Below are positions 2,024 through 62,398 of a DNA stretch of 62,560 bases, in pieces. The notes under the pieces were generated by a model that saw only the letters and a program-made list of their open reading frames with translations, did not search any database and had not been told where the DNA came from. The translations under genes were made by a program, and so were the position numbers. Positions within the stretch are counted from its first letter, which is position 1. Every line of letters starts with the position of its first letter. Source of the DNA: a virus (lineage: Duplodnaviria > Caudoviricetes); the IMG/VR virus record IMGVR_UViG_3300011442_000003, positions 1-62,560 of that record, one strand, 5' to 3'.

Positions 2024-2054
2024 ACCCTAACCAGTGAGGTAACCAACAACCAAT

Positions 2055-2639
2055 ATGTACCAGCACAATATCGAGGGCGACGCCCTGCGTGCGGCCTACA
2101 ACTGGCACGGCACGCAGACGCGCAAGGACAGCGACGTGCCCTACATCATCCATCCTGTACGCGTCGGCTTGCTGATCAGCGTGGCGTTCACCGAGGTGCC
2201 GCGCTTCGAAACCGGCGGCGACAACCCCGACATGATCGTTGCGGCGGCGTTCCTGCACGACGTGGTCGAAGATTGCAACGTCAACCTTGCCGACTTCGAA
2301 CAGGAGTTCGGCTACCACGCTGGTAACCATCTCTACAGGTTGGTCAACGAGGTCACCGAGCCAAGTCGTGTGCACAAGGGAGACCCACTATGGAACCGTG
2401 CGGCGCGCAAGTCGCTCGACGCCCAACACTACGGCAACTCATCACCTGCGGGGGCGACCATCAAGCTGGCCGACATCATCGATAACCTCAGCGAGATCGA
2501 GAAGCTCCAGCCGCGTTTCCTGCCGGTATACATGCGCGAGATGCTCGCTCTCGTGCCGCTGCTGGCGCACGGGCACCCCACGCTGTACGCTCGTGCCGAG
2601 CAAGCCATCGGCATAACCAGTGAGGTAACCAGATGCTAG
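2055..2639 (+). CDS. HD-domain (p)ppGpp hydrolase-like protein (Mesh1/small alarmone hydrolase family)
   Basis: H-x-x-Q-x-RK...PYIIHP...AAFLHDVVED...LVNEVTE...IKLADIIDNL match RelA/SpoT hydrolase motifs. Confidence 0.85.
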   Translation: MYQHNIEGDALRAAYNWHGTQTRKDSDVPYIIHPVRVGLLISVAFTEVPRFETGGDNPDMIVAAAFLHDVVEDCNVNLADFEQEFGYHAGNHLYRLVNEVTEPSRVHKGDPLWNRAARKSLDAQHYGNSSPAGATIKLADIIDNLSEIEKLQPRFLPVYMREMLALVPLLAHGHPTLYARAEQAIGITSEVTRC

Positions 2640-2845
2640 GTCGCTATCTCGTGCACGCCGAGCAGACCACGTCGAGCCAGAGCGGCAGCACGCTCTACAA
2701 CTACTACATCCGTGAGCGAGGCGCGCACGAGGGGGAGTACCTCGCCCGCGTCTATGACCCCCAGCTTGCCGACCGCATCGTGGATCTTCTCAACAGGTAC
2801 GGTACGCCCCGGCCCAGCACGGCCCAACAACAGAAACTTCTTTAA
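2633..2845 (+). CDS. Hypothetical protein
   Basis: Motif/SD at 2614-2628. Confidence 0.6.
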   Translation: MLGRYLVHAEQTTSSQSGSTLYNYYIRERGAHEGEYLARVYDPQLADRIVDLLNRYGTPRPSTAQQQKLL

Positions 2846-2874
2846 CCAGCTAACTAACCAACGAGGTAAGTCAA

Positions 2875-3987
2875 ATGTATCTTCGTCAACTCGCGACCCG
2901 GCTCTATCCGATACTCGCTTCCGACAACGCGGTTGAGCTTATTAGCCCGCCGGGAATTGGTAAGTCCGAGTTTGTGCGGCAGTTCGTCGAGGAACGCCGT
3001 CGCATCACCGGCAAGCGCATCGGCCTTGGCATCATGATGATCGCCAACTACACGCCGATTGATCTTCTGGGATACATGATCCCCGAGGACACGCTGATCA
3101 CCAACGCCGACGGCATTACCATCACGGTTAAGCGTTCGGTCTACACGATCCCGCCGTGGTTCCTGTCGGAGGAGGGTATCCCCCTCAACGACTACGACGA
3201 AGCCTACCTGTTCATGGACGAGTATGGTCAGGGCGAGCCCGACGTGAAGAAGCTGACGGCTGAGCTATTGCTCAATGCCCAGATCGGCCCGTGGAAGCTG
3301 GACAAGAGCAAGGTGTTTCGCATCGCCGCGAGCAATCGCGCGAGCGACCGTTCGGGTGTGACCAAGTCGATGGATCACATCATCAACCGACGCATCGAGC
3401 TTCACATCAAGCCCGACTGGCTCTCGTTCGACCAGTGGGCCATGAAAGGCGGCGTCGCGCCGTTTTTCCGGCTCTATGCCGAGAAGCACATCGAAGTGGT
3501 GTTCAGCGGCACCATGCCCAAGGACCAAGGTCCCTTCTGCACGCCTCGCTCGCTGGTGAAGCTCTCACGCGTGTTCGACGCCTTTGCCGACCCCGACACG
3601 GGGGCTTACCCGGCTGGTAACGACGAGGAGATGGCGTTCCTGTCGGAGGTAGCCGAGGGCACGGTGGGCACGCCTGCAGCGCGCTCGATCATGGCCTTCA
3701 TCAAGGTCCAGACCGAGACGCCTGCCTTCGAACTTATCGTGAAAGATCCCAAGGGCGTGTGGTTGCCCGAGCGTGCCGACGCCAAGATGCTCACGGCCTA
3801 CTCGTGCGCGCATCGCGTCGACGTGTCCAACATCGCCCCGGTGATCGAGTTCATGCAGCGGCTGAGCCCTGACTACGCAACCACGTTCGCGAAGTCGGCG
3901 GCCAAGCGGGACCATCGCCTCATGAAGTCCAAGGAGTTCTTGGGCTGGGTGTCCAAGAACGCCGCGCTGCTCAACGCGATCAGCTAG
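2875..3987 (+). CDS. MoxR-type AAA+ ATPase
   Basis: Walker A SPPGIGKS, Walker B YLFMDE, sensor AASNR, IINR, TPRS. Confidence 0.85.
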   Translation: MYLRQLATRLYPILASDNAVELISPPGIGKSEFVRQFVEERRRITGKRIGLGIMMIANYTPIDLLGYMIPEDTLITNADGITITVKRSVYTIPPWFLSEEGIPLNDYDEAYLFMDEYGQGEPDVKKLTAELLLNAQIGPWKLDKSKVFRIAASNRASDRSGVTKSMDHIINRRIELHIKPDWLSFDQWAMKGGVAPFFRLYAEKHIEVVFSGTMPKDQGPFCTPRSLVKLSRVFDAFADPDTGAYPAGNDEEMAFLSEVAEGTVGTPAARSIMAFIKVQTETPAFELIVKDPKGVWLPERADAKMLTAYSCAHRVDVSNIAPVIEFMQRLSPDYATTFAKSAAKRDHRLMKSKEFLGWVSKNAALLNAIS

Positions 3988-4035
3988 GGAGCTAGTAACC
4001 AGCGTGGTTAAGCCGAGGGTTATTAACAATAACCC

Positions 4036-4064
4036 TTGACTTACGGTATGCAACTAGTTAAACA
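4036..4064 (+). promoter_or_regulatory. Putative sigma70-like promoter
   Basis: TTGACT-17 nt-TAAACA, preceded by inverted repeat GGGTTATT-AAC-AATAACCC (4017-4035); spacer contains ACGGTATGC. Confidence 0.45.
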
Positions 4065-4086
4065 ACCATAACCAAGGACATAAGTC

Positions 4087-4311
4087 ATGGCTTTGAAGAA
4101 GCGCACGTTCCGCCTCGTAATGGAATACTGGTCCGAGGACGAGAGTTCGTTCGACACGATCAAGGACATCTTCGTGACCACCGCACGGGAGACGTTCGCC
4201 GTCGGCCTGCTGGCCTCGGGCGGCGCGAGCAAGCCGCCTGTGGTGAGTATCTTCACCGACAGCGCGGCGTCGGGGTCGACCGAGTTCAATCGAGATGGGG
4301 AGGAAGTCTGA
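4087..4311 (+). CDS. Hypothetical protein between the MoxR and VWA genes
   Basis: AAGGA SD; TGATG-coupled to the VWA gene. Confidence 0.65.
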   Translation: MALKKRTFRLVMEYWSEDESSFDTIKDIFVTTARETFAVGLLASGGASKPPVVSIFTDSAASGSTEFNRDGEEV

Positions 4312-5927
4312 TGGCAAGCTTCGCGCCTATTACCAGACAGGTTAAGCCCGCCATTCCGGCGTTGCCCAACATGAAGTCGCAACTCAAGTTCGTCGAGGTC
4401 AAGCTGACGCCCGTGCAGGCGCAGGCGTGGAACGAGACCAAGACGGCGCTGATCTGGCAAGCGCCCGGCTTCGCCCATATATTTTACTCGCTCCTGAACC
4501 TGAAGAAGGACGACGGCGTGTTATTCTGGACACGCTCGATCCCGACCATGTGCACCGATGGTCGTGCCATCGCCGCCAACCCGGATTTCTTCTTTGCGCT
4601 GGCGCTGCAGTACCGGGTGTTCGGTGTGTGCCATGAGATCGCGCATGCGATGTTCAACCACTGCGAGGTGGGTTACCAGTTACAGCGGTCGGGAAAGATC
4701 CAAGTTTACCGCGCTGGTAACTGGATCAAGCTGCCGTACATCCATCTGATCGGCAACAAGGCGATGGATTACGTGATCAACGATCTTCTCGTCGAGAGCA
4801 AGATCGGCAAGTGCCACAAGAACTGGCTGCACGACACCGACATCGGCACTCACAAGAACTCGTGGGTCGAAGTCTATGAACGCCTATTCGCTGATCAGGA
4901 GGAGCCCGACGAGCCCGAGGACGGTGACGAACCCAAGGAAGGTGACGAGGGCGAGGAAGGCGAGGAGGGCGAAGCGGGTGAAGGCCCGACCCGGCCCGGT
5001 GACCAGCCCGGTGAAGGCGACGAGGAGGGTGAAGGGGAAGGCGAGGGCAAGGGCGGCAGCGAGGGCGACCCCGACGACCAAGAGGCCGAGGACGGGAACG
5101 GTACGCAGAAGCAGCCGCCTAACCAAGCTGGTAAGCCTCCCAAGGGCAAAGGTGGGGGCGGTGGCGGCAAGGTGCCGGAACAGACCCGCGACCCCGGCCA
5201 GTTCGATGATCATCTCGCACCGGGCACCATCGAGGGCAAGAACCCCGAGGAGTGTCCGACCAACGAGGCTCAGTGGCAGGAGGCCATCGCCAGTGCCATG
5301 GAGATCGCCCGTGCGCAGGGCAAGCTGCCCGGCTGCATGGAGCAGTTCTTCACGACGTTCTTGGAGCCCAAAGTCACGTGGCAGGACGAGATCCGGGGCG
5401 AACTCGCGCGCAAGGTGGGCTCGGGCGGGTATGACTTTCGCAAGGCGCATCGCAGGCTGATCGTCAGGGACATCTACGCGCCCTCACAGTCTGGCTACGG
5501 CTGCGATACCATCGTGGTTATGATCGACACGTCGGGATCGGTCTTTGCCGTCAAGCATCTGCTGGATCGCTGGTTCGCTGAAATGTCTGGCATCATTGCC
5601 GAGGTGCATCCGCGACGGCTGATCGTGATCGAGGCCGACGACGGCGTGCAGAAGGTCACCGAGGTCGAGGACGAGATGGATCTGCTGGAGTACCGGGCGA
5701 CGCCTTCCAAGGGCGGCGGCGGCACCGACTTCCGGCCCTCGTTCAAGTACCTCGATGACGAGCAAATCGTGCCCGATGCGGTGGTCTACCTCACCGACAT
5801 GTGGGGAGATTTTCCCGAGGAGGACACGGCTTACCCGGTGATCTGGGGGAGCATCACCCCCAAGGATCAGCACGAGGAGCCGCCGTTTGGTAAGGTGGTG
5901 TATATCCCCACCGACGGCACCGCATGA
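4311..5927 (+). CDS. DUF2201-type metallopeptidase + VWA domain protein (MoxR partner)
   Basis: TMCTDG, CHEIAH (HExxH), acidic E/G linker, MIDAS IDTSGS, GGGGTDF, YLTDMWG. Confidence 0.85.
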   Translation: MASFAPITRQVKPAIPALPNMKSQLKFVEVKLTPVQAQAWNETKTALIWQAPGFAHIFYSLLNLKKDDGVLFWTRSIPTMCTDGRAIAANPDFFFALALQYRVFGVCHEIAHAMFNHCEVGYQLQRSGKIQVYRAGNWIKLPYIHLIGNKAMDYVINDLLVESKIGKCHKNWLHDTDIGTHKNSWVEVYERLFADQEEPDEPEDGDEPKEGDEGEEGEEGEAGEGPTRPGDQPGEGDEEGEGEGEGKGGSEGDPDDQEAEDGNGTQKQPPNQAGKPPKGKGGGGGGKVPEQTRDPGQFDDHLAPGTIEGKNPEECPTNEAQWQEAIASAMEIARAQGKLPGCMEQFFTTFLEPKVTWQDEIRGELARKVGSGGYDFRKAHRRLIVRDIYAPSQSGYGCDTIVVMIDTSGSVFAVKHLLDRWFAEMSGIIAEVHPRRLIVIEADDGVQKVTEVEDEMDLLEYRATPSKGGGGTDFRPSFKYLDDEQIVPDAVVYLTDMWGDFPEEDTAYPVIWGSITPKDQHEEPPFGKVVYIPTDGTA

Positions 5928-6072
5928 CGCTGATCCTGTTCCAGCGTGGTGCTACTTCGTGGGGCTTCCAGATTGGGAAGCTCTGCATGTACTGGCCCTA
6001 CCTGCCGTTCTGGCGGGTGGGCTGCCGTCCCACGTTCATGTGGGAAGATGAATAACCAGAGAGGTAACTGTC

Positions 6073-6297
6073 ATGGGCGAACGTAAAGTCGAGGTCGAGA
6101 TCAACGGCACCGTGAGCGAAGAACTGAGCGCCAGCCTTGCCGCTGCCTTACGTGAGGTCGAGGCAGCCAGCGCCATGTTGGCTGCGTTGCGGGCGTGCCA
6201 CGACGTTCTGATGATGAACCCTCATACCAACGCAGGGCGGGCGCACAAGATGGCAGCAGTCGCTATCGCGCAGGCCGAGGAGGCGGGCATCGAATAA
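6073..6297 (+). CDS. Hypothetical protein
   Basis: Motif/SD at 6053-6067. Confidence 0.6.
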   Translation: MGERKVEVEINGTVSEELSASLAAALREVEAASAMLAALRACHDVLMMNPHTNAGRAHKMAAVAIAQAEEAGIE

Positions 6298-6490
6298 TTT
6301 GGGGTGGTGTGTCAGTCCTTTACGGCGACGGGGCGAGCCCGAAACAGCAAGTTCCTCCTGCCTAACCGCGCAGTCCCCTGCAATCGTACATAGCTGCGCG
6401 GCATGGTCAAATCCTGCACACCAGCGTTGTGCACCGGCAACAACGGTATGCAACGTGACATTACTGGATAAGGGAACAGCCCCACTTATT
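6298..6490 (+). ncRNA. Putative structured non-coding RNA
   Basis: Several complementary stems with G-U pairs in a ~230-nt intergenic gap (see findings). Confidence 0.4.
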
Positions 6491-6528
6491 TAACTAGTCT
6501 AACCAGTGTAACCAACGAGGTAATCAAT

Positions 6529-7125
6529 ATGCCGAGCAAAACCCGACTGAACAAGGACATGCGCCACATGCTGCTGCGACTGGCGAGAGATCGCGTCAAG
6601 GCCCCCAAGAGCGTCGAGGACGCGTTCACCGCCGCCCACAAAATCTGCGAGAAGGAGATCCGGCGCGTCTGCAAGGGTCTATTTCCCAAGCGCGATATGG
6701 AGGTGTTGAAGAAGTACCACGCCGCGCATCAGCCGCCCTACATCGACCTGATCATCCCCGGCGAGGCGGCGCGGTTCGACCGCTTTAACTTCGTTGGTCA
6801 CTCGTGGGAGACGGCGCGCACCGGCACGACCGACCTGCCGTGGGTGCCCAAGCACACCGAGCATGGTCGCATCCAGTTGGACGAGCGTGCCGCCAAGGCG
6901 TTCCAAGTCTACGCCAGTGCCGCCGCCGGGCGCGAGATGGCACGCAACGAACTGCTGGGCACGTTCGAAACGGCGATCCGCAACGCCAAGAACCTTGAGG
7001 AGATCGAGGCGGTATGGCCTGCCGCCCGCGAGGCGCGCGTCTATGCCCCGCCGTCGGTCCCCGCCGTGATCCTGTCCACCGTGTTCGACCGGATGCGCGA
7101 GGCGGTCGAGCAGAAGAACGCGTAA
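6529..7125 (+). CDS. Nmad5-like (nucleotide-modification-associated domain 5) protein
   Basis: N-terminal RLNKDMR and C-terminal AKNLEEIEAVWPAARE are typical of Nmad5. Confidence 0.65.
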   Translation: MPSKTRLNKDMRHMLLRLARDRVKAPKSVEDAFTAAHKICEKEIRRVCKGLFPKRDMEVLKKYHAAHQPPYIDLIIPGEAARFDRFNFVGHSWETARTGTTDLPWVPKHTEHGRIQLDERAAKAFQVYASAAAGREMARNELLGTFETAIRNAKNLEEIEAVWPAAREARVYAPPSVPAVILSTVFDRMREAVEQKNA

Positions 7126-7138
7126 CCAGAGAGGTAAC

Positions 7139-7564
7139 ATGACCGAGCTTTTCAAGTGCGCCGTCGCGCCCTGTAAATCTTGCCCCTACCGCAAAGACGT
7201 GCCGTCGGGGGTCTGGGCGATCAACGAGTACGTCAAGCTGCCCGAGTATGACGGCGAGATCTTCGAACAACTCATGAAGGGCGCGACGGCGCTGTTCATG
7301 TGCCATCAGAACGACGGCAAGCTGTGTGCCGGGTGGGTCGGCGCGCACGGCCCGCAGAACCTGCTGGCGATACGCCTGCACAACGACAAGGTCGACCCCG
7401 AGGTGTCCAAGTACAAATCCCCGGTGGCGCTGTTCAAGTCGGGTGCGGCGGCAGCAAAGCACGGTATGCGCGCGATCCGGCGGCCTGCCGTGCGTGCCCG
7501 CCAGATGGTCGAGCGACTGGCGCGCAAGCAGAAGCGGCTCTCCAACAACTCCCATAACCAGTGA
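7139..7564 (+). CDS. DUF6283-like Cys-rich protein
   Basis: PCKSCPYRKDVPSGVW...YVKLPEYD...FMCHQ...LCAGW. Confidence 0.7.
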   Translation: MTELFKCAVAPCKSCPYRKDVPSGVWAINEYVKLPEYDGEIFEQLMKGATALFMCHQNDGKLCAGWVGAHGPQNLLAIRLHNDKVDPEVSKYKSPVALFKSGAAAAKHGMRAIRRPAVRARQMVERLARKQKRLSNNSHNQ

Positions 7565-7571
7565 GGTAACT

Positions 7572-7868
7572 ATGAAGGAGATAACCGTCGATCCGGTTTG
7601 GGTCGCGGCCACGCTGTTCACCGTGATGGGTGTCGCCTTCGGGTGGTACATCGTCAGGCTGGATCACATGGTCGAGGATCTGCGTCGCGAGATCATCAAG
7701 ATCGAGAAAGACATCGGCAAGCTGCAGAACGCCGACGTTACCTGCACCAACGACCAGACCATCCTCAAGCAGGACATGTCGGCCATCCGCGAGACGATGC
7801 TCAAGATCGTTGCCCGTCGCTTCATGCGGCGCGGCCTTCGCAAGGACTTCAAGGATCGGGTGCGCTGA
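7572..7868 (+). CDS. TM-anchored coiled-coil protein
   Basis: N-terminal TM followed by a heptad-rich region; motif/SD at 7555. Confidence 0.65.
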   Translation: MKEITVDPVWVAATLFTVMGVAFGWYIVRLDHMVEDLRREIIKIEKDIGKLQNADVTCTNDQTILKQDMSAIRETMLKIVARRFMRRGLRKDFKDRVR

Positions 7869-8041
7869 TGCGACAGAAGATGGCACCCCTCCTCATGTGC
7901 GTGATCTGCCTCGCCATGGCGGCGTGGGTCGTGTGGGGCGGCGGACCCGACGACAGTGCCCGGCTTGTTGTCGGGATGGTCTCGATGATCGGCACCTGCG
8001 TGGCGATTATCGCGATTGTCCTACCTAATCCGTGGGACTGA
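7868..8041 (+). CDS. Small 2-TM membrane protein
   Basis: TGATG coupling; two hydrophobic segments. Confidence 0.55.
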   Translation: MRQKMAPLLMCVICLAMAAWVVWGGGPDDSARLVVGMVSMIGTCVAIIAIVLPNPWD

Positions 8042-8064
8042 GGCGATTAACCAGTGAGGTAACT

Positions 8065-8193
8065 ATGCCTATAATGACGTTATACCATGCTGGCCTTGCA
8101 GGCTTCGCGCTTGGCTGCTTCGTCGGCTGGTTTGCCCGCGTCGGCTGGCGCTGGCATCGCCGCCGTCGGCATCGCCTACATTACGGAGATTAA
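8065..8193 (+). CDS. Small membrane peptide (42 aa), not in the ORF track
   Basis: MPIMTLYHAGLAGFALGCFVGWFARVGWRWHRRRRHRLHYGD; motif/SD at 8048. Confidence 0.5.
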   Translation: MPIMTLYHAGLAGFALGCFVGWFARVGWRWHRRRRHRLHYGD

Positions 8194-8194
8194 C

Positions 8195-8494
8195 ATGGCA
8201 CGTTTCAGAGGCACCGTTCAGGGAGGACGTGGCGAGGGCTCCCGGCTGGGTCACGTGAGTACCGGCCTGACCACGCGAGCGAACGGCTGGAGCGGACGCA
8301 TCAGCACCCGTCTATTCGTCAACGAGAGAGACGAGGACTGGGCCAGCGTCCACCACGAGGACAACGCGGGCAACTGCAAGACGCTCTATCACGGCCCGCT
8401 CAACAAGTACGTCCCCGAGACCCCGTGGGTCGAGGTGCCGTGGAAGATCGAGCCGGTGTCCCTTACCAGTGAGGTAACCCATGCGAAGGAATAA
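8195..8494 (+). CDS. Phage hypothetical protein
   Basis: GGAG SD; MARFRGTVQGGRGEGSRLG N-terminus. Confidence 0.6.
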   Translation: MARFRGTVQGGRGEGSRLGHVSTGLTTRANGWSGRISTRLFVNERDEDWASVHHEDNAGNCKTLYHGPLNKYVPETPWVEVPWKIEPVSLTSEVTHAKE

Positions 8495-8714
8495 GCAACC
8501 GATCATCCACGGGCGGGTCAAACCCCACCCCGAGATGCAGAAGCTGATGCACATGCTGCGCGCGACCGGCAAGATCCACAATGGCGAGCCGCAGCGCCCG
8601 CCCATCGACAAGCGCGACGCCGACGAGGCGTTCACGTGGATGGTGCACGGCTTTGGTTGGGCGCTGCTGGCCGTGATGATCGCCGTCATTGGTTATGTCT
8701 ACTGGCAAACCTAA
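8481..8714 (+). CDS. Small protein with C-terminal TM
   Basis: Motif/SD at 8463. Confidence 0.55.
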   Translation: MRRNKQPIIHGRVKPHPEMQKLMHMLRATGKIHNGEPQRPPIDKRDADEAFTWMVHGFGWALLAVMIAVIGYVYWQT

Positions 8715-8943
8715 GCGCCGCAGGCGCTACGCGTGGATACGCTACGTGCCGCATCCCAACGGGGATCTGGTAGCCGACATGTCGGGCTTCCACGACTGGG
8801 GCACGGTCGATCAGATCCAGTGCCCCAACCTACTGTCACATAGCTACCAGTTAAATAACCCGTGGCTCATGATCGAGAACCCCGGCATCAACGAAAGGGT
8901 GCCCCGCTTGCAACGGATCGAATGGAAGGAACCCCAAAAATAA
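8689..8943 (+). CDS. Hypothetical protein
   Basis: Fills the gap in the + strand gene run; start uncertain. Confidence 0.45.
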   Translation: MVMSTGKPKRRRRYAWIRYVPHPNGDLVADMSGFHDWGTVDQIQCPNLLSHSYQLNNPWLMIENPGINERVPRLQRIEWKEPQK

Positions 8944-8965
8944 GTTAAATAACTATTAGTGGTAC

Positions 8966-8994
8966 TTGACAGGTTATGTAACCCGTGATATAGT
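8966..8994 (+). promoter_or_regulatory. Sigma70-like promoter
   Basis: TTGACA-17 nt-TATAGT with AT-rich upstream; spacer holds GGTTA-TG-TAACC. Confidence 0.75.
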
Positions 8995-9021
8995 GTCACG
9001 GACAATCGAGAGAGGTACGGT

Positions 9022-9210
9022 ATGCCAGATAATTTCAAGCCTGCCCGCATCGTCAGGTTCGTCGCGGCCAACGATCTCTACCCCGGCCATATCTGCGAGT
9101 TCGACAAGGAGAAGAACATCCTTCGCATCAACCGCGAGATATACAGCGCGCTGACCGAGCGCCAAAAAACCAAGGTGTTCCGATCCAACGAGACCATCGC
9201 TTCCTTCTGA
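9022..9210 (+). CDS. Hypothetical protein
   Basis: GAGAGG SD; directly downstream of the promoter. Confidence 0.6.
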   Translation: MPDNFKPARIVRFVAANDLYPGHICEFDKEKNILRINREIYSALTERQKTKVFRSNETIASF

Positions 9211-9231
9211 CCAGATAACCAGCGAGGTAAC

Positions 9232-10002
9232 ATGCCGACCTTCTATGTCGCTCAGTCGGTCCGACGGGACTTCGAAGCCATCCTTGAGAAGCTCGACCGC
9301 GCCCGCAAAGACGAGACGCGGCTCAAGCTGATCGTGCAGGCCGACAACTTCCTACGAGTGCACGGCTACGGCTGGGACGCCGTCAAGCTGCGCCCCGACA
9401 AACACTACAAGCCGGTGTTGCCGCCGCCGCGACAGGTACACGGGCTGACCCCTGACGCGCCCCGCGTGAATGGTGCGGCTCCCACCCCGGCACCCACTGC
9501 CGCGCCGACGCCGCTGCGAAATATCTCGCAGGCTGCCGTCGACAAAGAGACCCAGCGGTTCACTATGTCCAAGGAGGGCCGCAACAACCTGCGCGCCGCC
9601 CTGCGGCTCCATCCCAATTATCCGATGTACCCGCTGGCACAAGTCAAGACCGTCGAAAGTTGGAACAAGGCGCAGATGGTGCAGGCGGCGCTGGAGTTCG
9701 GCATCGATCTGCAGCGCATGTTCGAAACTACCATGGTGGTTATCCCGGTGCAGCCCGGCGCGCAGTTGGACATCGAAGATGCGATTGCTGCAGCCAAGGC
9801 GAAGATCCCCGTCAAGGTCGTCGAGCGGGTGATCGACACTAACGAGGACAGCATCGAGTACAAGCGATACGCCGTCGAGCTATCCGAGCGCGCCAGCCTC
9901 GACGAGATCGAGCGCAAGTACTTTCGCTTCCTCGGCAAGCTCAACCGGACGCTCGATGCGTCGGAGTTCGACCGGATCGCGGAGGTCTACACGAGACCGT
10001 AG
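9232..10002 (+). CDS. Hypothetical protein
   Basis: 256-aa ORF; motif/SD at 9216. Confidence 0.7.
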   Translation: MPTFYVAQSVRRDFEAILEKLDRARKDETRLKLIVQADNFLRVHGYGWDAVKLRPDKHYKPVLPPPRQVHGLTPDAPRVNGAAPTPAPTAAPTPLRNISQAAVDKETQRFTMSKEGRNNLRAALRLHPNYPMYPLAQVKTVESWNKAQMVQAALEFGIDLQRMFETTMVVIPVQPGAQLDIEDAIAAAKAKIPVKVVERVIDTNEDSIEYKRYAVELSERASLDEIERKYFRFLGKLNRTLDASEFDRIAEVYTRP

Positions 10003-10046
10003 GGTCTCCAATAATACTTTAACCAGATAACCAACGAGGTAAGACA

Positions 10047-10886
10047 ATGGCGAGACGCAGAAAATCATGGGCTGATCCCCCCACCAAGACAGTGTTCGGC
10101 ACCGCCACCAGCGGCATCAAGCTGGCGATCAACACGATGGCCCGACAGGTGGTGTCGCGCTTCAGGCCCGCCCCCCTGCCGACGGTCGAGGCCCTGAAGA
10201 TGGTCATACATCCCGACGACATAGATCTGCTGCGCCGGGTGCGCGGGCTGATGACGCTCCAGCAGCAGGGACACTCCACCGACTACATGCTGAAGTTCGA
10301 CGACGACAAGGGTGCGTGGGCGGGTGCCGCACGTATACGCCTTCGCGTCGAGGCCAGCGATCCCGATCAGGCAGCGCCGCCTGACTACTGCGCGGCGAGC
10401 TACTTCGAAAAGGCGCTGGGCAAGAGCTACCACAAGGGTAACCTGCTGCCGACGGCGAGCTTCGAACACACGATGGCGCTGGAGCATGGCGTTAGGGATT
10501 ATCTGGAGGTCGCCCACGACTGGGCGCTGGTCGAGGCGCTGTTCAATCACTTCGACAGCAAGCCCGAAGTCTACAAACGTTCCAACGTCAGGTTCCTCTG
10601 GTCGGGCATCATGCCCCTTCTCAGGCACGGCGGCGAAAGCTGCCAGAACGCGGCGATCCTGCTTGCGCAGGTGAAGGAGAGCGGCTGGTGCCACACACCA
10701 CCCGAGATCTTCCCGGCGCTCAAGCACGCCAACGAGGTCATCGCGCGGGGTCAACTCCTGATCGATCAGACGGGCTCGACGGCAATGCCGCCCGCCATCG
10801 TGGGCTACGCAATGCCCCATGTGCTGTGCAGCGAGTACAGCCATCCACAGTGGCCGCTGGCTAAGCTCACGCCCAAGCTGGCGTGA
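10047..10886 (+). CDS. Hypothetical protein
   Basis: 279-aa ORF; motif/SD at 10028. Confidence 0.7.
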   Translation: MARRRKSWADPPTKTVFGTATSGIKLAINTMARQVVSRFRPAPLPTVEALKMVIHPDDIDLLRRVRGLMTLQQQGHSTDYMLKFDDDKGAWAGAARIRLRVEASDPDQAAPPDYCAASYFEKALGKSYHKGNLLPTASFEHTMALEHGVRDYLEVAHDWALVEALFNHFDSKPEVYKRSNVRFLWSGIMPLLRHGGESCQNAAILLAQVKESGWCHTPPEIFPALKHANEVIARGQLLIDQTGSTAMPPAIVGYAMPHVLCSEYSHPQWPLAKLTPKLA

Positions 10887-10890
10887 CCCC

Positions 10891-10921
10891 AAAAAATAGG
10901 GCGGGGGATCTCCCCCCGCCC
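10891..10921. terminator. GC-rich hairpin with A-tract on its 5' side (terminator-like; T-tract on the - strand)
   Basis: AAAAAATA-GGGCGGGGG-ATCT-CCCCCCGCCC. Confidence 0.55.
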
Positions 10922-11072
10922 AGTCGTAACCAGATAACCAACCAACCGGCTGATCAAGCAACTCAGGTATCCATTTGGATACCAAATGTCAACTGGACCC
11001 CCAGCAGTAATTTTGTTACATCTACATAACCAGCGAAGTAACTCGCTAAATCAACAGCATAGGAGCCCCCTC

Positions 11073-11261
11073 ATGGCCGCAGGCAAGCATCTCAAGGCGT
11101 TCACTTTCTTCATGTCGAAGGAGGAACACAAGTTCGTCAAGGTCGTTGCGCAAAAGAAGAAGGTCTCGGCAGCGAAGGTCATGCGGACGCTCGTGCAGCG
11201 TCTCGCAAGCCAGCCCGCCAACAAGGATCTCGGCGCGAAGGTCCGCGAGCAGCAGATCTAA
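11073..11261 (+). CDS. Ribbon-helix-helix (Arc/CopG-like) DNA-binding protein
   Basis: LKAFTFFMSKEEHKFVKVVAQKKKVSAAKVMRTLV has a beta-alpha-alpha pattern; AGGAG SD. Confidence 0.6.
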   Translation: MAAGKHLKAFTFFMSKEEHKFVKVVAQKKKVSAAKVMRTLVQRLASQPANKDLGAKVREQQI

Positions 11262-11262
11262 C

Positions 11263-11703
11263 ATGCCTCGCGAAATGCACGGCCTGTCCCACGTCAACGG
11301 CAAGCGTACCAAGCTGAACCGGACGTGGCTCAACATCCGCAACCGATGCAATAACCCCCGTGGGCAGGACTATGCTTACTACGGTGGTAAGGGCATCAGG
11401 GTGTGTGCGCGGTGGGACAGGTTCGTGCATTTCGTCGCGGACATGGGAGAGCCGCCATCGCCCGACCACACCGTCGAGCGGCGCGACACCAACGGCGACT
11501 ACGAACCGGGCAACTGCTTCTGGGCAACACGCCAAACGCAAGCGCGCAACAGGCCGGGTTATAACACCATGACGAAGGCGAAGGCCGACCAGATGCGGAC
11601 GCTCTATATCAGGGGCGTGACACGGCAAGTCGACCTTGCCGAGCAATTTGGATGCACCCAAGGTATGGTCAGCCAGATCATTCGGGGGGTCACATGGGCC
11701 TAG
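11263..11703 (+). CDS. HNH homing-endonuclease-like protein with C-terminal HTH
   Basis: W-x-NIRNRC-x-NP...YGGKGIRVC-x-RW...FVADMG...HTVERRDTNGDYEPGNCFWAT...QARN; RQVDLAEQFGCTQGMVSQI. Confidence 0.85.
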   Translation: MPREMHGLSHVNGKRTKLNRTWLNIRNRCNNPRGQDYAYYGGKGIRVCARWDRFVHFVADMGEPPSPDHTVERRDTNGDYEPGNCFWATRQTQARNRPGYNTMTKAKADQMRTLYIRGVTRQVDLAEQFGCTQGMVSQIIRGVTWA

Positions 11704-13568: not shown

Positions 13569-13789
13569 AAAAACGTGCCTTCCGTAGCATCAAGGCGATA
13601 GCCGACCAGTTCGGCTACTCGTTCGACGGCATGACGGGCAACCAGCATCTGCGCTGGGTTCACCCAACCAAGCCGATGGTGATCACGATCTCCAAGGAGA
13701 GCGATACCCGTTCGCTCAAAAATGTGACAGCCTGCTTCCGGCGTATCGCGTCTAACCAAGCTGGTAACGATGACCGGCGACCAATCTAA
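13565..13789 (+). CDS. HicA-like small protein
   Basis: Basic helix then GYSF...TGNQHLRWVHP...VITIS resembles the HicA fold. Confidence 0.5.
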   Translation: MKKRAFRSIKAIADQFGYSFDGMTGNQHLRWVHPTKPMVITISKESDTRSLKNVTACFRRIASNQAGNDDRRPI

Positions 13790-14174: not shown

Positions 14175-14179
14175 ATCAG

Positions 14180-14932: not shown

Positions 14933-14993
14933 TATCTGTTTAAGTAACCATATTGGTAATTCAAAAACCCCGTAAAACGAAAAAGCGAAAACC

Positions 14994-15454: not shown

Positions 15455-15545
15455 AAGCGATGATAACCGCCGTGCTTGGGCTAGTGATCTTGTCCATGCT
15501 GGTCGGAAGCATCTTCGTTCTGTGGGCCGTGGCGATGGACAAACT

Positions 15546-15836: not shown

Positions 15837-15854
15837 ATAACCATATAGGTAACT

Positions 15855-45354: not shown

Positions 45355-45374
45355 TTCTTACCACCGTGGTAATC

Positions 45375-47618: not shown

Positions 47619-47717
47619 CGCGCCCTCCCGATCTGGCTTGCGCTAACACAAGCATGTGGCCGAAGTTACCACGAAGGTAACCCCGACCACACACCCGTGA
47701 AACCCAGCAGTGAGAGG

Positions 47718-50988: not shown

Positions 50989-51019
50989 GGATCTCTCCTA
51001 TGTTACCAGTGTGGTAACC

Positions 51020-53738: not shown

Positions 53739-54266
53739 ATGGCTGTGCCGATCAATCCGGTTGCCACGCTAGGGCTTGACGAAGCGAAGCTCCAACGTCT
53801 GGCGACCGAACTCGCCCGCGAGATGTACGAGCCGCGAGACATCCTCAAGATGTTTGGGCTCAGCACCGACGAAGTGGGCGAGCTACTCGAAAAGAGCGTG
53901 ACGTTCCAAACGATGTACCGCGAGGCTTACCAGCTTTGGCACTCGTCGGGGGGCACCCGTGATCGTATCGAGGCGAAGGCACTGATCGTGTACGAGCAGT
54001 CACTGGAGCAACTGGATAAGGACCTTCACGACACGAGCCATCCGCTCTCGGCACGCGTCGACCTCGCCAAGCACCTCGCGGCGACCGCCCGCCTCGTCCA
54101 GAAGGACGGCGCTGGTCAGGCCCAGATTGGCGACAAGGTCGTGCTGAATATCTACTTCAAGGGACAGCCGCTCCAACTCGCCAAGGAGATCTCAGTCGTG
54201 GGAACTCCCAAGTTCGAACCCCCTGATGTGGATACATCACCAGTTACCACCGTGGTAAGTCCGTGA
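53739..54266 (+). CDS. Putative terminase small subunit
   Basis: Helical HTH-like N-terminus; directly upstream of the large terminase. Confidence 0.55.
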   Translation: MAVPINPVATLGLDEAKLQRLATELAREMYEPRDILKMFGLSTDEVGELLEKSVTFQTMYREAYQLWHSSGGTRDRIEAKALIVYEQSLEQLDKDLHDTSHPLSARVDLAKHLAATARLVQKDGAGQAQIGDKVVLNIYFKGQPLQLAKEISVVGTPKFEPPDVDTSPVTTVVSP

Positions 54267-56123: not shown

Positions 56124-56426
56124 TCAGCGACGTTTCCCCGCCAAAATCTCAGACACCCGCCCGGTGTTGAGGTTCATCTTGTCGGCAATCGTCTGGTTGG
56201 TGATGCGCCGGTCACGATGGAACATCCTGATGACCTGTTGGCGCACCCGAGGCGTCACGGTTTGAGCCACCACGGCACCCATCTTGACGGGACGCCGATT
56301 ACGAAGCTCGCTCTTGAGGAGGCGCAACGCCTTCAGGATGTCGCTGCGGGACAGGCCGTGGTTGATCTGGTCGATCAGCGTGTCGATGAACGCACGCTGC
56401 TTTTGTTTGGTGGTCGGTCGGATCAT
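56124..56426 (-). CDS. HTH DNA-binding protein
   Basis: TNQTIADKMNLNTGRVSEILAG. Confidence 0.7.
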   Translation of the reverse strand: MIRPTTKQKQRAFIDTLIDQINHGLSRSDILKALRLLKSELRNRRPVKMGAVVAQTVTPRVRQQVIRMFHRDRRITNQTIADKMNLNTGRVSEILAGKRR

Positions 56427-56709: not shown

Positions 56710-57168
56710 TCAGGCGAACCCGACGCGGGTACCCTTCTCGTCGATGGTCAGGCACTCACCTCGTGGTGCAACGCCGTGGGGGCACAGCCCGAGGTGGATC
56801 CAGTCGCCGTACTCCCAGATAAGCTGATCGATCCTGAGCAAGCCGACATAGGGCTGGATCGCCACGCAGACATCGTAAGGATCGCCAAAACAGGGCACGA
56901 TGAAGTCGGCAGCCAGACCTAACATATGGGCCGAATTGGCAGATCCACCGACCAGCCTGTTGGTCTCCTCGTTGCGGTAGCCCGAAGTGATCGTTATCGG
57001 ATTGTTACCACAGAGGTAACGTACCAGTTCCATCACCCCCGCGAGCTTTTGCAAGCTCAGGAACGCAGGGATCGTCGGCACGTTTTTCACGCCCGCACGA
57101 GCCGCCGTCTCCGAGTAGGTGAACTCGGCCAGCGTGAAGTGCGCGCTCAGCATTATGGGCGTGGTCAC
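56710..57168 (-). CDS. Peptidase M15 endolysin
   Basis: LSAHFTLAEF, ITSGYR, VGGSANSAHMLGLAAD, DQLIWE, WIHLG. Confidence 0.88.
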   Translation of the reverse strand: MTTPIMLSAHFTLAEFTYSETAARAGVKNVPTIPAFLSLQKLAGVMELVRYLCGNNPITITSGYRNEETNRLVGGSANSAHMLGLAADFIVPCFGDPYDVCVAIQPYVGLLRIDQLIWEYGDWIHLGLCPHGVAPRGECLTIDEKGTRVGFA

Positions 57169-58013: not shown

Positions 58014-58250
58014 CTAAGTCGCGAGTTCCCAATCGTGCGCGAGAAGGTCGGTCTGGCTGCACAGCCACGGCACCAGAGAATAGGTCCCGTCGGGCTTCGG
58101 AATGTTGATGTAGACGTAGGGCAGGTTCATCTTGCTGCCGAGGTCGGGCACCTGTAGCTCAAGCCACATGCCCTTGCCGTGCCACCCGGCACGACGGACC
58201 TTCTGGTTGGCTTCCATCATCACGATGGCGTCACCGATTTTCATGCCCAT
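58014..58250 (-). CDS. DUF2829 / Tad2-like protein (candidate Thoeris anti-defence sponge)
   Basis: IGDAI...KVRRAGWHGKGMWL...PYVYI...VPWLCSQTDLLAHDWE; GGAGG SD; frame extends upstream to 58412. Confidence 0.8.
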   Translation of the reverse strand: MGMKIGDAIVMMEANQKVRRAGWHGKGMWLELQVPDLGSKMNLPYVYINIPKPDGTYSLVPWLCSQTDLLAHDWELAT

Positions 58251-58460
58251 GGGTTTGTCCTCCATCTCAGGGTCTTGGGTTTTGTTGAACACGCGCCCGC
58301 ACGTCGGGCAAAACATGTAGGCACCGATGCCGCCGCCAGCGAGGCCATAGCTGGCCTCCAACTCGACGCGGGGGTGGAACGGGCAATATCTCAGCAGGGG
58401 ACAAGCGGCCATAACCCGCCGAGCTTAGGCAGGTTATGGCACTTGTGCAAGTAGCTAGTT

Positions 58461-59641: not shown

Positions 59642-60067
59642 TTATTGAACCAAGATCTTGTTGGGACCGCGCCGCCGGGAATGTGTGTTGACCACGTTGA
59701 CGCCCTTGTCGGCAAGAACCTTGCGTAGATCATCGGCAGCGCCCGAGAGCGCGGAGCCCGCGCTAGCGGGCGGGAGCGGCGAGGGCACAGGAATAGCTCG
59801 AAACACCCAGTTATCGAACTGGTCATCGAACGCGGGCATGTTCGCAAGTTTTACCAGAGGAGGTTTCCCCTTGGCGCAGCGCGCAAACTGGCCCCTGAGG
59901 TACGCGGCATGCTGGGAGATCGATTTCACCACGCCGACGTAGGCGCGCTTGGTTGGCCTATGCAACAGGAAATATACCCCCGGCGAGTTCAATAACCCGG
60001 CAGGACAAATACGATGGATCGCCTCGGTGGCGGCGTGGGTCTCGGGGGTCGGGGTGGGCTCGTTCAT
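59642..60067 (-). CDS. GIY-YIG-like protein
   Basis: PGVYFLLHRPTKRAYVG. Confidence 0.6.
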   Translation of the reverse strand: MNEPTPTPETHAATEAIHRICPAGLLNSPGVYFLLHRPTKRAYVGVVKSISQHAAYLRGQFARCAKGKPPLVKLANMPAFDDQFDNWVFRAIPVPSPLPPASAGSALSGAADDLRKVLADKGVNVVNTHSRRRGPNKILVQ

Positions 60068-60073
60068 GGGCGT

Positions 60074-60102
60074 AACATAGTCATGGTTGAGTAACCTGTC
60101 AA
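60074..60102 (-). promoter_or_regulatory. Sigma70-like promoter (likely leaderless or short-leader transcript)
   Basis: TTGACA-17 nt-TATGTT on the - strand; spacer GGTTA-CT-CAACC; ATG 60067 lies 6 nt after the -10. Confidence 0.7.
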
Positions 60103-60309
60103 GGGAGACGCTTGGTTATTTAGTTTTTTGGAGGGGGCGGCGGTTTGATAGGCCGGGGGTGGATAGGTTACGTGGTTGAATAGGCTGGTTATTTAACCAA
60201 AGGGTATTTTTGGGAACCCATATTTCTCGATCCGCTGAGCGCGCGGGTGGGGGGCCGGGGGCCTGTCCAGATGGGGGGAGGGGGAGGCCCGGCTACCATG
60301 GTGGTATCA

Positions 60310-60710
60310 CGTTTTGCGAGGGATGTACGGCTCTACGACCGTGCCTCTAGGCAGACCCGCCCAGCCTAACAGAATGGGATACTCGATTGACGGAGCCAGT
60401 GACGCGGCTCGCGGTTTCAGGGCGACCTAATCGGTCGGATGGTCTCATTACACCGAGTGTCCACTATGACGCTCAGCGGCGGCCTTCCCTTTCCCCATCT
60501 TGGGGTGGGCAAGGTCGCGAAAAACCGGGGAACCGGCCAGAATACGCGCTGAGTGCTTGAACCGCCTGAGAGGGTGGGTGTGGGTCGCAGTCGGTCCCTG
60601 AGTTGATACGGCGCAAAGCCAGCCATCGGAGGGTGAGAGGAAGAACAAGCGAGAGTTTTTCCCTCACTTCCAGAGCGTAACCAGCGTGGTTACGTTCTGG
60701 AAGTGATTTA
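60310..60710 (+). ncRNA. Putative structured non-coding RNA or 5' leader
   Basis: Nested stems with G-U pairs, a GGAA tetraloop and a terminal 20-bp hairpin (see findings). Confidence 0.4.
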
Positions 60711-60727
60711 ACCTGTGGAGCAACGCA

Positions 60728-60931
60728 ATGTCTTTGATGCGTCCCAAGCTTGCCGACGGCAAGTACGTCCCCAACACTAAGCTCAAGCCCAAGGGCGCGG
60801 GCTTTGACAAGTCGCTGCGCACCAATGCGCAATTCAGCGACAAGTATCTCCGCACCTGCGCGTACCACACTCAGACCGCGATCTGGTCTAAGACGGTGGG
60901 TCAGGTGAAGCTCGTGAAGGGAGCGCGCTAG
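60728..60931 (+). CDS. Small basic hypothetical protein
   Basis: GGAG SD. Confidence 0.55.
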   Translation: MSLMRPKLADGKYVPNTKLKPKGAGFDKSLRTNAQFSDKYLRTCAYHTQTAIWSKTVGQVKLVKGAR

Positions 60932-61121
60932 GTCATGCTCAATATCCGGTTAATGAACCGCAAGATAGGCGGAATACGCTTTGTTCGCATCGGTAGGCTG
61001 TTTTTCAGCTTCGGAGTGTCCCGCCGATAGGGTACGGTACGCATGCCCCAACCATAAGACAACACGTTTTGCTAGTTCAATAACCCGTAACCACGATGGT
61101 TACAGAAAGCGAGAGAGTGCA

Positions 61122-61859
61122 ATGGATACGATCACCAACATCGAGACCAGCGAGATCGACGGCAACAATCAGCCCGAGATGACGCCGGAACAGGCGCAGG
61201 CTCAGGCGATGAAGTTCGCACGTGATTGCGGCAAGGCCGTCGCCAAGGGCGAGATGTCCCTGACCACGTTCGTCGCCAAGATCCTGCCGTTCGCGCGGGT
61301 CGACCGCCAGTGGATCAAGGCCGATCAGAGCAAGGACCTCTGGATCGAGAACACGACGGCGCGCAACGGCACGCTCAGCGACGCCTTCCAAGACAAGGCT
61401 AACCCCGAGGGTAACAGCAAGGCCGCGAACGGTTCGAAGCTGCGCCAGCCGCTGAAGCTGGCGAACTCGGTCGACTACACCGAGGAGCTTCTGCAGGACA
61501 CGCTCGACGAGATCGCGCGGCTGCGCAAGGCGGGCGAGACCACGAAGTCTCCCTATCCGGCGTTCGTCGACGTGTGCCGGGCGCAGTTGAAGGACAAGGA
61601 CAAGCGTCTCACCATCGAGGAGATCAGCTTCATCGTGTGCCCCACGCAGAAGGTCAGCACGGAACTGTCCAAGCTGGAAGCCGCGCTCAAGGCGCTCAAG
61701 GCCGCTGCCAAGATCCGCGACGACGCGGGCGAGCCCCTCTGCACCGCGACGGCACGGGCCGAAGCTCTGGTCTCGGACCAGATCGCGACGCTCAAGCAGG
61801 TCGCGCTGCAGGTCAAGGCCCGCGCCGCTGCGGTGGCGGCTGGCCTGACCGTGGTCTAG
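61122..61859 (+). CDS. Hypothetical early protein
   Basis: 245-aa ORF with genome-typical codon usage; GAGAG SD. Confidence 0.7.
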   Translation: MDTITNIETSEIDGNNQPEMTPEQAQAQAMKFARDCGKAVAKGEMSLTTFVAKILPFARVDRQWIKADQSKDLWIENTTARNGTLSDAFQDKANPEGNSKAANGSKLRQPLKLANSVDYTEELLQDTLDEIARLRKAGETTKSPYPAFVDVCRAQLKDKDKRLTIEEISFIVCPTQKVSTELSKLEAALKALKAAAKIRDDAGEPLCTATARAEALVSDQIATLKQVALQVKARAAAVAAGLTVV

Positions 61860-61879
61860 GTCAAATAACCAACGTGGTT

Positions 61880-61910
61880 ACTGCCTCAGCCTGTCATGGG
61901 CTGAGGCAGT
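61880..61910 (+). terminator. Hairpin after the early gene
   Basis: ACTGCCTCAGCC-TGTCATG-GGCTGAGGCAGT, 12-bp stem. Confidence 0.55.
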
Positions 61911-61919
61911 CTACCTAAA

Positions 61920-62340
61920 CATCCCTTGGTTAGGGGCGGTTAGGTAGACTGGTGTGTAATAGGCCGGGGTACGGTATGCGTCCCCACGCCGACTAGGTGC
62001 CCAATGTAATTGGCAAGGGTCAGCTACACCATCCTATGGCGCATTGCATGGTTAGCCGGCACTAGCCAGTCTACTCTCATGGTTAGTTTGTTAGATAGAT
62101 AGATAGAATAGATATAACTAATAAATAAAGAAACATAGGGGTCGTGCGAGGCCGGGGCCGAAGTGGAACTATCTGGTTAGCGTACACAACATATAACGTA
62201 TCTTGGCCCCCTATCAAATAGGTACCCTCTTGTTTTCAAACCCCCTTCTACTTCTGTCTATACTACCCACGTAGTAGCCCTACGGCTACACGCAACAATG
62301 ATACAAGGATTACCTTACATAAACAACGTTCTACTATTGA
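61920..62340. other. AT-rich non-coding region (candidate origin or terminus/regulatory region)
   Basis: Much lower GC than flanks; TAGA iterations at ~62091-62112; no ORF. Confidence 0.4.
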
Positions 62341-62366
62341 CTAGGGACTATGAGCCATGGTACCCT
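62337..62366 (+). promoter_or_regulatory. Putative promoter for the early operon
   Basis: TTGACT-18 nt-TACCCT with a TG extension. Confidence 0.4.
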
Positions 62367-62398
62367 AACCGCTTGGTCACATAACCAAAGAGGTAACT

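Follow-up and report, generated by a model that had tools for sequence, protein, structure and literature searches.

Lineage-specific arrays of spaced palindromes, many of them at gene boundaries, across a phage family that includes Rhizobium phage RHph_TM27A

What is a short palindrome doing at dozens of places in a phage genome, and what might read it there? The question is raised by a 62,560-bp virus genome of the Caudoviricetes, IMG/VR record IMGVR_UViG_3300011442_000003, which we analyzed over its whole length and refer to as the window. It is a complete virus genome with direct terminal repeats at its ends. An earlier note, made from the nucleotide sequence alone, had listed at least 43 copies of the 15-bp element TWACC-N5-GGTWA (W, A or T; N, any base) and had taken them for the footprint of a dimeric DNA-binding protein that coats the genome about every 1.5 kb. 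We found that the sites exist and are under selection, and that counterparts occur in all family members examined. Our leading reading, to which we give a probability of roughly 45%, is that they are operators on double-stranded DNA for a putative co-evolving, phage-encoded dimeric factor acting at gene boundaries.

The window contains 47 exact copies of the element, against a mean of 0.03 and a maximum of 1 in 100 dinucleotide-preserving shuffles, so that the array lies as far beyond chance as had been claimed. All 43 starts given earlier were correct, and the copies that had been missed start at 1418, 4330, 27927, and 61400. Read backward, the pattern had no copies. The distance between the half-sites was strict: a spacer of 5 nt gave the 47 copies, whereas spacers of 0 to 4 nt and 6 to 11 nt gave 0 or 1, spacers of 12 to 15 nt gave 1 or 2, and half-sites in direct or everted arrangement gave 0 or 1. 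Twenty-three sites lie fully within genes, compared with a mean of 1.1 and a maximum of 4 in 300 synonymous-codon shuffles. The two controls that the earlier note had proposed, other spacer lengths and shuffled codons, thus both came out in its favor. There were 20 further sites with one mismatch, mostly at the outermost base. Among them are the near-matches reported at 1026, 1693, 11027, 16942, 20562, 21639, and 23993; one given as 2322 really lies at 2312, and one given as 60293 differs at both outer positions and is not a one-mismatch site.

The array tracks gene junctions and is not an even coat. Spacing between sites was uneven (mean, 1,325 bp; median, 782 bp; range, 241 to 4,355 bp), and the sites follow gene boundaries, which removes the regular coat from the earlier proposal. 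Gene calling yielded 90 genes covering 92% of the window and leaving 7.8% non-coding, yet 24 of the 47 sites are not wholly inside a gene (binomial P = 6e-15). The rightward early/replication arm, which runs from ~60.7 kb across the record ends to ~23 kb, holds 33 sites in ~26 kb of small early genes, compared with 13 in ~32 kb of late genes (24.0 to 55.8 kb) and 1 at 55.8 to 60.6 kb. Twenty-two sites lie no more than 30 nt upstream of, or across, a called start. Adding 10028-10042, which lies 4 nt before the ATG at 10047 (open reading frame 10047-10886), and 62382-62396, which lies 2 nt before an ATG at 62399 whose open reading frame runs off the window end, we counted 24 of 47 sites as start associated, either 1 to 19 nt before a start codon or spanning the start.

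The start-associated sites run through both arms. The site at 1418-1432 (TAACCATGCAGGTTA) carries in its spacer the ATG of the gene at 1423-1695. Next come 2028-2042, 12 nt upstream of the gene 2055-2639, which encodes an HD-domain protein; 2614-2628, 4 nt before the start at 2633; and 2855-2869, 5 nt before that at 2875. Some sites supply, with their left TAA, the stop codon of the gene before them: this holds for 6053-6067 (stop of 5924-6055; start at 6073, 5 nt on) and 7123-7137 (stop of 6529-7125; start at 7139, 1 nt on), and 7555-7569 likewise contains the stop of 7139-7564 and precedes the start at 7572 by 2 nt. The site at 6509-6523 lies 5 nt before the start at 6529, and that at 8048-8062 lies 2 nt before an ATG at 8065 and 24 nt before the called start at 8087. 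Further along are 8463-8477 (start at 8481, 3 nt on), 9216-9230 (9232, 1 nt), 13753-13767 (13770, 2 nt), 15838-15852 (ATG at 15855 of the SNF2 helicase, 2 nt), 17499-17513 (17516, 2 nt), 17949-17963 (17973, 9 nt), and 22773-22787 (22791, the start of an Acb2/Tad1-like protein, 3 nt). Upstream of minus-strand starts lie 24637-24651 (2 nt from 24634), 37322-37336 (8 nt from 37313), 45358-45372 (3 nt from 45354, an internal virion protein), and 51003-51017 (14 nt from 50988). The site at 54244-54258 is 18 nt upstream of the large-terminase start at 54277, and that at 61088-61102 is 19 nt before the start at 61122.

These sites share more than the half-sites. Position 6 was A in all 24, and position 10 was A in 18 and T in 6, giving the consensus TAACCA-(G/A)-N-G-A-GGTAAC, followed mostly by 1 to 5 nt and an ATG. 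The earlier statement that the spacer varies freely while half-sites and spacing are fixed therefore stands for the spacing, but the spacer is not wholly free. The right half-site, GAGGTAA, doubles as a Shine-Dalgarno sequence by supplying GAGG, an adaptation that we attribute to intergenic gaps of just 13 to 31 nt. An identical 15-mer, TAACCAGTGAGGTAA, recurs at four gene junctions.

Five other sites are intergenic. Three follow a stop codon: 3996-4010 (8 nt after the stop at 3987, with no start adjoining), 14945-14959 (12 nt after the stop at 14932, with the next start 34 nt on), and 61866-61880 (6 nt after the stop at 61859). The site at 47666-47680 is the tip of a long hairpin (47630-47717, minus strand) that lies, in the sense RNA, 3' of the capsid-gene stop. 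The last, at 60678-60692, is the center of a 41-bp palindrome (60665-60705, plus strand) in which we read one G-T pair from the sequence; it lies in the control region, 35 nt before the gene at 60728, the first early gene. The remaining 18 sites are deep in genes, many of them essential ones, as the earlier note had said. Two are in the gene at 2875-3987 (3116-3130 and 3606-3620), three in that at 4311-5927, for a DUF2201 metallopeptidase/VWA protein (4330-4344, 4706-4720, and 5120-5134), two in the DNA polymerase gene (12166-12180 and 13200-13214), and three in the gene for a 2,453-aa protein (25465-25479, 27927-27941, and 30805-30819). Single sites lie in the genes for a PD-(D/E)XK nuclease (14212-14226, in 14180-14932), the primase-helicase (20079-20093, in 19364-22333), a 1,231-aa protein (32902-32916), the tail fiber (41677-41691), the portal (52026-52040), and the M15 endolysin (57005-57019, in 56710-57153), and in the genes at 35732-36862 (35841-35855) and 61122-61859 (61400-61414). 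These deep sites occupy three reading frames (1 in frame 0, 7 in frame 1, and 10 in frame 2), and a peptide motif is therefore not their cause.

If selection acts on the sites themselves, they should outlast their flanks in relatives. We compared the window with IMG/VR fragments L003, L004, L005, and L113, which are ~77% identical to it in nucleotide sequence, and with the closer L013. Counting distinct relative sequences only, we obtained 19 site comparisons, which are not mutually independent because the relatives are not. The fixed half-site positions differed at 9/152 (6%), the W positions at 3/38, the spacer positions at 13/95 (14%), and the flanks at 153/570 (27%), and the pattern was still matched at 15 of the 19 sites. 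Within the genes at 2875-3987 and 4311-5927, four of five compared sites were retained in L113 (3116, 3606, 4330, and 5120) and 4706 was missing; the spacers were altered, that of 3606 among them. The portal site was not retained in L003, L004, or L005, and 45358 was lost in one relative. The site at 51003 was identical in those three fragments, that before the large terminase was retained with an altered spacer, and both W positions of 61088 had changed together in L005. Judged by these comparisons, the sites are under selection for sequence, and the conservation that the earlier note had asked about is present.

To place the phage, we used protein searches, as megablast found no DNA match between positions 1 to 20000 of the window and a named phage. 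The nearest named relative is Rhizobium phage RHph_TM27A (here TM27A), whose portal protein is 59% identical, as are those of three near-identical isolates; remoter portal matches are podoviruses of the HMO-2011 type with marine alphaproteobacteria as hosts. A search of IMG/VR with the capsid protein found 568 relatives, and we retained the best 80 loci. We then compared eight complete genomes, namely the window, TM27A, G001, and G005 to G009, searching each de novo for spaced palindromes.

All eight genomes carry a palindrome array of 18 to 68 copies whose sequence is specific to the lineage. Beside the 47 copies of TWACC-N5-GGTWA in the window, TWACC-N5/6-GGTWA occurs in TM27A (39 copies, mainly with N6 [31] and also with N5 [8]), in G007 (68 copies, 49 with N6 and 19 with N5), and in G008 (36 copies, 23 of them exact TTACC...GGTAA, mostly TTACCC-N3/4-GGGTAA). 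G009 has 41 copies of TTACCC-N3/4-GGGTAA. G005 has 22 copies with the core TACGC-N5-GCGTA, the full form being TTACGCCC-N-GGGCGTAA. The motif TGACA-N3-TGTCA, extended to TTGACA-N3-TGTCAA, has 22 copies in G001 and 18 in G006. Shorter pieces contained further types, for example TTACAACGTTGTAA in L065 and TCACTCCGGAGTGA in L089 and L090, and a single half-site base separates L038 (TTACGCCC...) from L040 (TCACGCCC...). Several structural-region pieces had no clear motif.

Placement was likewise shared across the family. Between 44 and 73% of the sites per genome lie outside deep coding sequence (the lowest value being 30/68 in G007), although the eight genomes are 83 to 93% coding. In lineages whose half-site does not resemble a Shine-Dalgarno sequence, a normal one follows many of the start-associated sites directly. 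In seven of the eight genomes, and with any motif type, the capsid-gene stop is followed at 1 to 37 nt by a site; G008 has a one-mismatch copy after its capsid gene. Motif type follows the early/replication module and not the structural one: TM27A is the closer match to the window in the 440-aa protein at 17973-19295 (57%) and in the primase, and G005 is the closer in the capsid (75%) and the terminase (60%). This makes the early/replication module the probable location of the reader's gene. Since all eight genomes have an array peculiar to their lineage, a co-evolving, phage-encoded reader is implied.

In the mechanism that we propose, a symmetric dimer would contact double-stranded DNA at two TWACC(A) half-sites separated by roughly one helical turn. 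The sites precede about half of the early/replication genes, follow the capsid gene, and occur in the control region, with additional sites kept inside long genes. Binding might then set how far transcription reaches from gene to gene, either as a roadblock or through a global repressor or activator, in a mode resembling stoperators or the KorB operators of plasmid RK2. We infer from the sequence data that the reader is a protein, that double-stranded DNA is its target, and what binding would do. The part of the earlier proposal that survives, as the leading reading, is the dimeric DNA-binding footprint, in which the identity of the half-sites is kept.

We considered whether the sites could be promoters and rejected the idea, as few promoter-like sequences adjoin them: the window has four, one of which overlaps a site, and the eight genomes have two to nine each, few of them near sites; the TTGACA-type lineages, in which the -35 hexamer is part of the motif, are the exception. 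The same scarcity makes it unlikely that the sites control transcription initiation. A promoter role is also disfavored because in G001 a Shine-Dalgarno sequence directly follows the site. One site of G006 is itself the -35 hexamer of a perfect TTGACA-17-TATAAT promoter (21038-21066, minus strand, in L098), which lies directly 5' of a Shine-Dalgarno sequence and start codon. Nor do the window sites look like intrinsic terminators, with their G+C-rich stem and T run, as stems extended beyond the motif are rare and no T run follows the capsid-gene hairpin in the window; TM27A has a hairpin with a T run after its capsid-gene site.

A palindrome can also be read as a fold, and the main alternative, which we hold to be less probable, is that the sites act as RNA or single-stranded DNA hairpins bound by a phage-encoded factor that recognizes the stem. 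In RNA, the sites would flank ribosome-binding sites on the 5' edge and form the apex of the hairpin in the 3' region of the capsid mRNA, and they would serve gene-by-gene control of translation, mRNA processing, or stability, on the model of Cas6 with CRISPR repeats, of RegA with T4 early mRNAs, or of the RNase III sites that separate T7 early genes. The motif of every lineage can form a stem of 5 to 7 bp with a loop of 3 to 5 nt, and in all lineages inspected the sites adjoin or overlap a Shine-Dalgarno sequence. Some of what weighs against operators on DNA speaks for such hairpins. The site tops a long, RNA-type hairpin after the capsid gene in seven of eight genomes. In the window the whole 113-nt stretch folds at -59.5 kcal/mol, and in the capsid-gene folds of the window and G006 we read several G-U pairs that are available in the sense RNA only. 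Of 66 distinct sequences downstream of the capsid gene in relatives, 47 fold more stably as the sense strand (Wilcoxon P = 9e-7), and 30 carry TTAC-N(5-11)-GTAA no more than 100 nt from the capsid stop, compared with 56 of 3,200 control windows. The G-T pair of the 41-bp palindrome at 60678 is, in the same way, valid in the sense strand only. Two spacer lengths, such as N5 and N6, coexist within one genome in four of the five TTACC-type genomes, which is easy for a hairpin loop and not for a rigid dimer on DNA. Also against operators on DNA, the roadblock role is pure inference, and no binder was found: a Pfam scan, which covered 53 of the 90 called proteins, gave no DNA-binding family above its curated cut-off.

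The pairing evidence from the sites themselves points the other way. Over all 47 sites in sense orientation, positions 2 and 14 were A/A in 21, T/A in 18, A/T in 5, and T/T in 3; A/A cannot pair, and what is kept is therefore half-site identity and not pairing. Among deep sites, 12 of 18 were the perfect palindrome TTACC...GGTAA; read in sense orientation, positions 2 and 14 were T/A in 12, A/A in 3, and T/T in 3, with no orientation bias. The 6/10 pair was broken in 18 of the 24 start-associated sites, leaving three contiguous pairs. Across the eight genomes, one-mismatch variants would be G-U in 48 cases and A-C in 50 on the sense strand (p = 0.92), which, with no excess of G-U over A-C, leaves no mark of RNA pairing; the near-cognate sites on which this comparison is made may be non-functional. 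The loops are variable and the stems fixed, the opposite of the pattern for most RNA-hairpin readers, whereas a free spacer between fixed arms is usual for half-site reading on DNA. An extended stem is lacking at most sites (at least five extra pairs, allowing one mismatch, at 1 of 47), Rfam gave no match at the gathering score in the window, and conserved sites deep in essential genes would make no sense for a processing nuclease. Under the operator reading, the tip position can be explained, as an operator palindrome and a hairpin can share a short gap only if they are concentric. The shift to TAACC at starts could destabilize an mRNA hairpin in which the Shine-Dalgarno sequence would otherwise be hidden.

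DNA sites need not concern gene expression at all. They could serve in priming or loading by the fast-evolving primase-helicase, in condensation or packaging, or as a "self" mark against a nuclease, all of which we regard as improbable. In favor of such a role, the deep sites in long late genes hold the largest gap to 4,355 bp, intergenic placement could reflect where 15 fixed bases fit most cheaply, and the primase-helicase ranks with the least conserved of the core proteins (G001 and G006 share 47% identity in it, compared with 51 to 87% in other core proteins). Site density, however, follows the number of gene junctions and not distance, the conserved position after the capsid gene in different lineages points to gene expression, and no ParB-domain or similar protein was present among the scanned proteins. 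The genome silencing and parS-like segregation suggested in the earlier note also found no support, as no integrase, repressor family, or parAB was seen among these proteins and the relatives are mostly phage-sized contigs in metagenome bins. Among nine loci found by scanning a genome collection, the closest were 50- to 58-kb contigs in such bins, and one was a partial match in a 3.17-Mb metagenome-assembled chromosome.

The repeats might, finally, have no dedicated reader and be junction linkers that spread with shuffled cassettes, are homogenized by recombination, and play a structural role only. Three breaks in homology between the window and L113 lie within 6 to 21 nt of the sites at 2855, 61088, and 61866; the genes between that for the 245-aa protein described below and 2875-3987 differ between the two, and the junction motif is the same. 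The 15-mer shared exactly by four junctions would also suit this explanation. We nevertheless consider it very improbable, as the 18 deep sites, in their three frames, must stem from point mutation under selection for sequence, half-sites are conserved while spacers drift, structural hairpins need no identical stems, and half of the window sites cannot form a hairpin.

As to a protein that would read the sites, 17 protein clusters are common to all eight genomes. One is a 245-aa core protein encoded at 61122-61859 on the plus strand, named earlier as a possible binder. Sites surround its gene, five of them within the surrounding 1.7 kb in the window, and in four of the eight genomes a site lies no more than 30 nt upstream of its start. 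The protein has 10 homologues in all and no Pfam or PHROG family; its AlphaFold model is all-alpha (predicted local distance difference test score, 78.7) with no fold match in the PDB (best E = 0.82), and an Atlas search gave a lead to DUF3102 at 0.86. Among genomes with the TTACC half-site in common it diverges too much, and we regard it as a weak candidate for the trans factor. The other two binders named earlier, a 62-aa protein (11073-11261) and a 100-aa protein (56124-56426) that look by eye like ribbon-helix-helix and helix-turn-helix proteins, were rejected, as jackhmmer found no relative of either in the other seven array genomes. A 146-aa protein (11263-11703) with a helix-turn-helix-like tail, again judged by eye, had a single jackhmmer relative among those genomes, in G009, and was rejected as well. 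Pfam and PDB matches of all three were below threshold. We also rejected the 2,453-aa protein (24671-32032, minus strand) as a virion RNA polymerase with hairpin promoters, as it has no Pfam or PDB sequence match. Its PHROG matches, to which no function is assigned there, are restricted to the C-terminal third, and its counterparts have 2,307 aa in TM27A and 2,876 aa in G001.

The palindromes could also be the cis half of an undescribed gene-boundary system whose trans factor lies outside recognizable DNA-binding families and whose code diversifies by lineage, the outer TTAC being kept while the inner two or three bases and the spacer change. The factor may read hairpins and punctuate polycistronic phage transcripts in the manner of Cas6. 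We think this unlikely on the whole; if true, it would be common to a very large and mostly uncultured phage family. Genome-wide repeat arrays in lytic phages, such as those of Cluster O, have stood unexplained for more than a decade. Hundreds of natural variants of site and spacer occur in the present family, so that the reader could be sought by covariation, and its cultured member RHph_TM27A, a phage of Rhizobium phaseoli, permits direct work on binding, transcript ends, and site mutants. Should the reader be a new kind of protein, it would also be a source of orthogonal pairs, each made up of a short site and its binder.

The window around the array is organized as follows. The early/replication arm encodes the DNA polymerase, SNF2 helicase, PD-(D/E)XK nuclease, and primase-helicase, and the leftward structural arm (24 to 53.6 kb) contains the portal, capsid, tail-fiber, 2,453-aa, and 1,231-aa genes. 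The terminase genes lie at 53.7 to 55.7 kb and a leftward lysis and accessory operon at 55.7 to 60.1 kb. Divergent operons are separated by a 0.65-kb non-coding control region (60067-60728), which contains several lone GGTTA and TAACC half-sites (~60110 to 60210) and a leftward promoter-like TTGACA-17-TATGTT (60102-60074). Two products have domains of anti-defense proteins, each exceeding the curated cut-off: that of 58014-58361 (minus strand) has a Tad2-like domain (Thoeris anti-defense 2; PF11195, E = 2.6e-18), and that of 22791-23069 (plus strand) has an Acb2/Tad1 hairpin domain (PF24729, E = 5.8e-10) and is likely a sponge for cyclic-nucleotide defense signals. GATC-containing pentamers are the most overrepresented in the window (TGATC, 155 compared with 41 expected from base composition). 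The gene pair 2875-3987 and 4311-5927 (plus strand) is orthologous to genes of TM27A for an ATPase-domain protein and a DUF2201 metallopeptidase/VWA protein; the six genomes with TTAC-type motifs have the pair, and both TTGACA-type genomes lack it. In the GenBank record of TM27A, a "putative integrase protein" (L002 12248-15331; record 42248-45331) is the orthologue of the window primase-helicase, with 36% identity over 1,031 aa and a PHROG assignment as DNA primase/helicase. For this reason, attL and attR as annotated in that record are doubtful.

How does the array compare with known systems? The OB sites of KorB in plasmid RK2 and the sites of ParB and Noc are dispersed palindromes of 13 to 16 bp, read throughout one replicon by one dimeric protein. 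Their specificity shifts between relatives through a few changes of bases and residues. Compared with them, the window has a higher copy number and a placement tied to gene starts, and the 53 of 90 proteins scanned included none with a ParB domain. The stoperators of Cluster A mycobacteriophages share with the window dozens of sites in short intergenic gaps of early and late operons; a single phage protein reads them and is thought to affect elongation, not initiation (PMC4351075 and PMC3203893 in their passages on stoperators, and in part general background). They lack symmetry, follow the direction of transcription, and are bound by a temperate phage's immunity repressor, whereas the window sites are symmetric and the proteins scanned included neither a repressor nor an integrase.

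The start-associated sequences (SAS) and extended SAS (ESAS) of Cluster K mycobacteriophages come closer in placement. According to the passages of PMC3203893 that describe them, these repeats, like the window sites, lie a few nucleotides upstream of starts and contain the Shine-Dalgarno core, and the stop codon of the upstream gene sometimes falls within the repeat. The ESAS inverted repeats have a consensus specific to the subcluster, and the repeats were judged to be DNA-binding sites because departures from the consensus lose RNA pairing (PMC3203893); we have used the same argument for the window. The SAS, however, is described as an asymmetric 13-mer in one orientation and in the non-structural half only, whereas the window element is a dyad that occurs in both arms (13 sites at 24.0 to 55.8 kb) and has 18 of 47 copies deep in genes. 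Start placement of the SAS kind is seen at 24 of the 47 window sites and not at the other 23.

The closest match is Cluster O of the mycobacteriophages, in which, in the passages of PMC4351075 on the repeat, a 17-bp dyad, TGTTCGGNNNCCGAACA, is present in 34 copies in Corndog and a dimeric DNA-binding protein is proposed. Common to both arrays, as far as those passages go, are more than 30 copies, invariant inverted arms around a variable center, and no meaningful orientation; many sites are intergenic or near the 5' ends of genes and about one-third are within genes, and they are denser in the non-structural arm and mostly off promoters (PMC4351075). In the window this corresponds to 47 copies, 18 of them deep in genes. 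Neither group of phages is evidently temperate, and both arrays lack a known binder (PMC4351075). The phages, hosts, and sequences are unrelated, the relatives of the window being alphaproteobacterial phages, and three features belong to the window family only when it is set against the Cluster O passages: half of the window sites lie on ribosome-binding sites, palindromes and spacers vary by lineage, and a site forms the tip of the capsid hairpin. In the literature outside supplements, we found no description of the motif or of arrays in the window's phage family. To call the array an undescribed system, as had been done, is nevertheless too strong, given the very similar array in Cluster O (PMC4351075, passages on the repeat). 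It is best classed as a strongly selected, family-wide variant of a known, still unexplained kind of phage feature.

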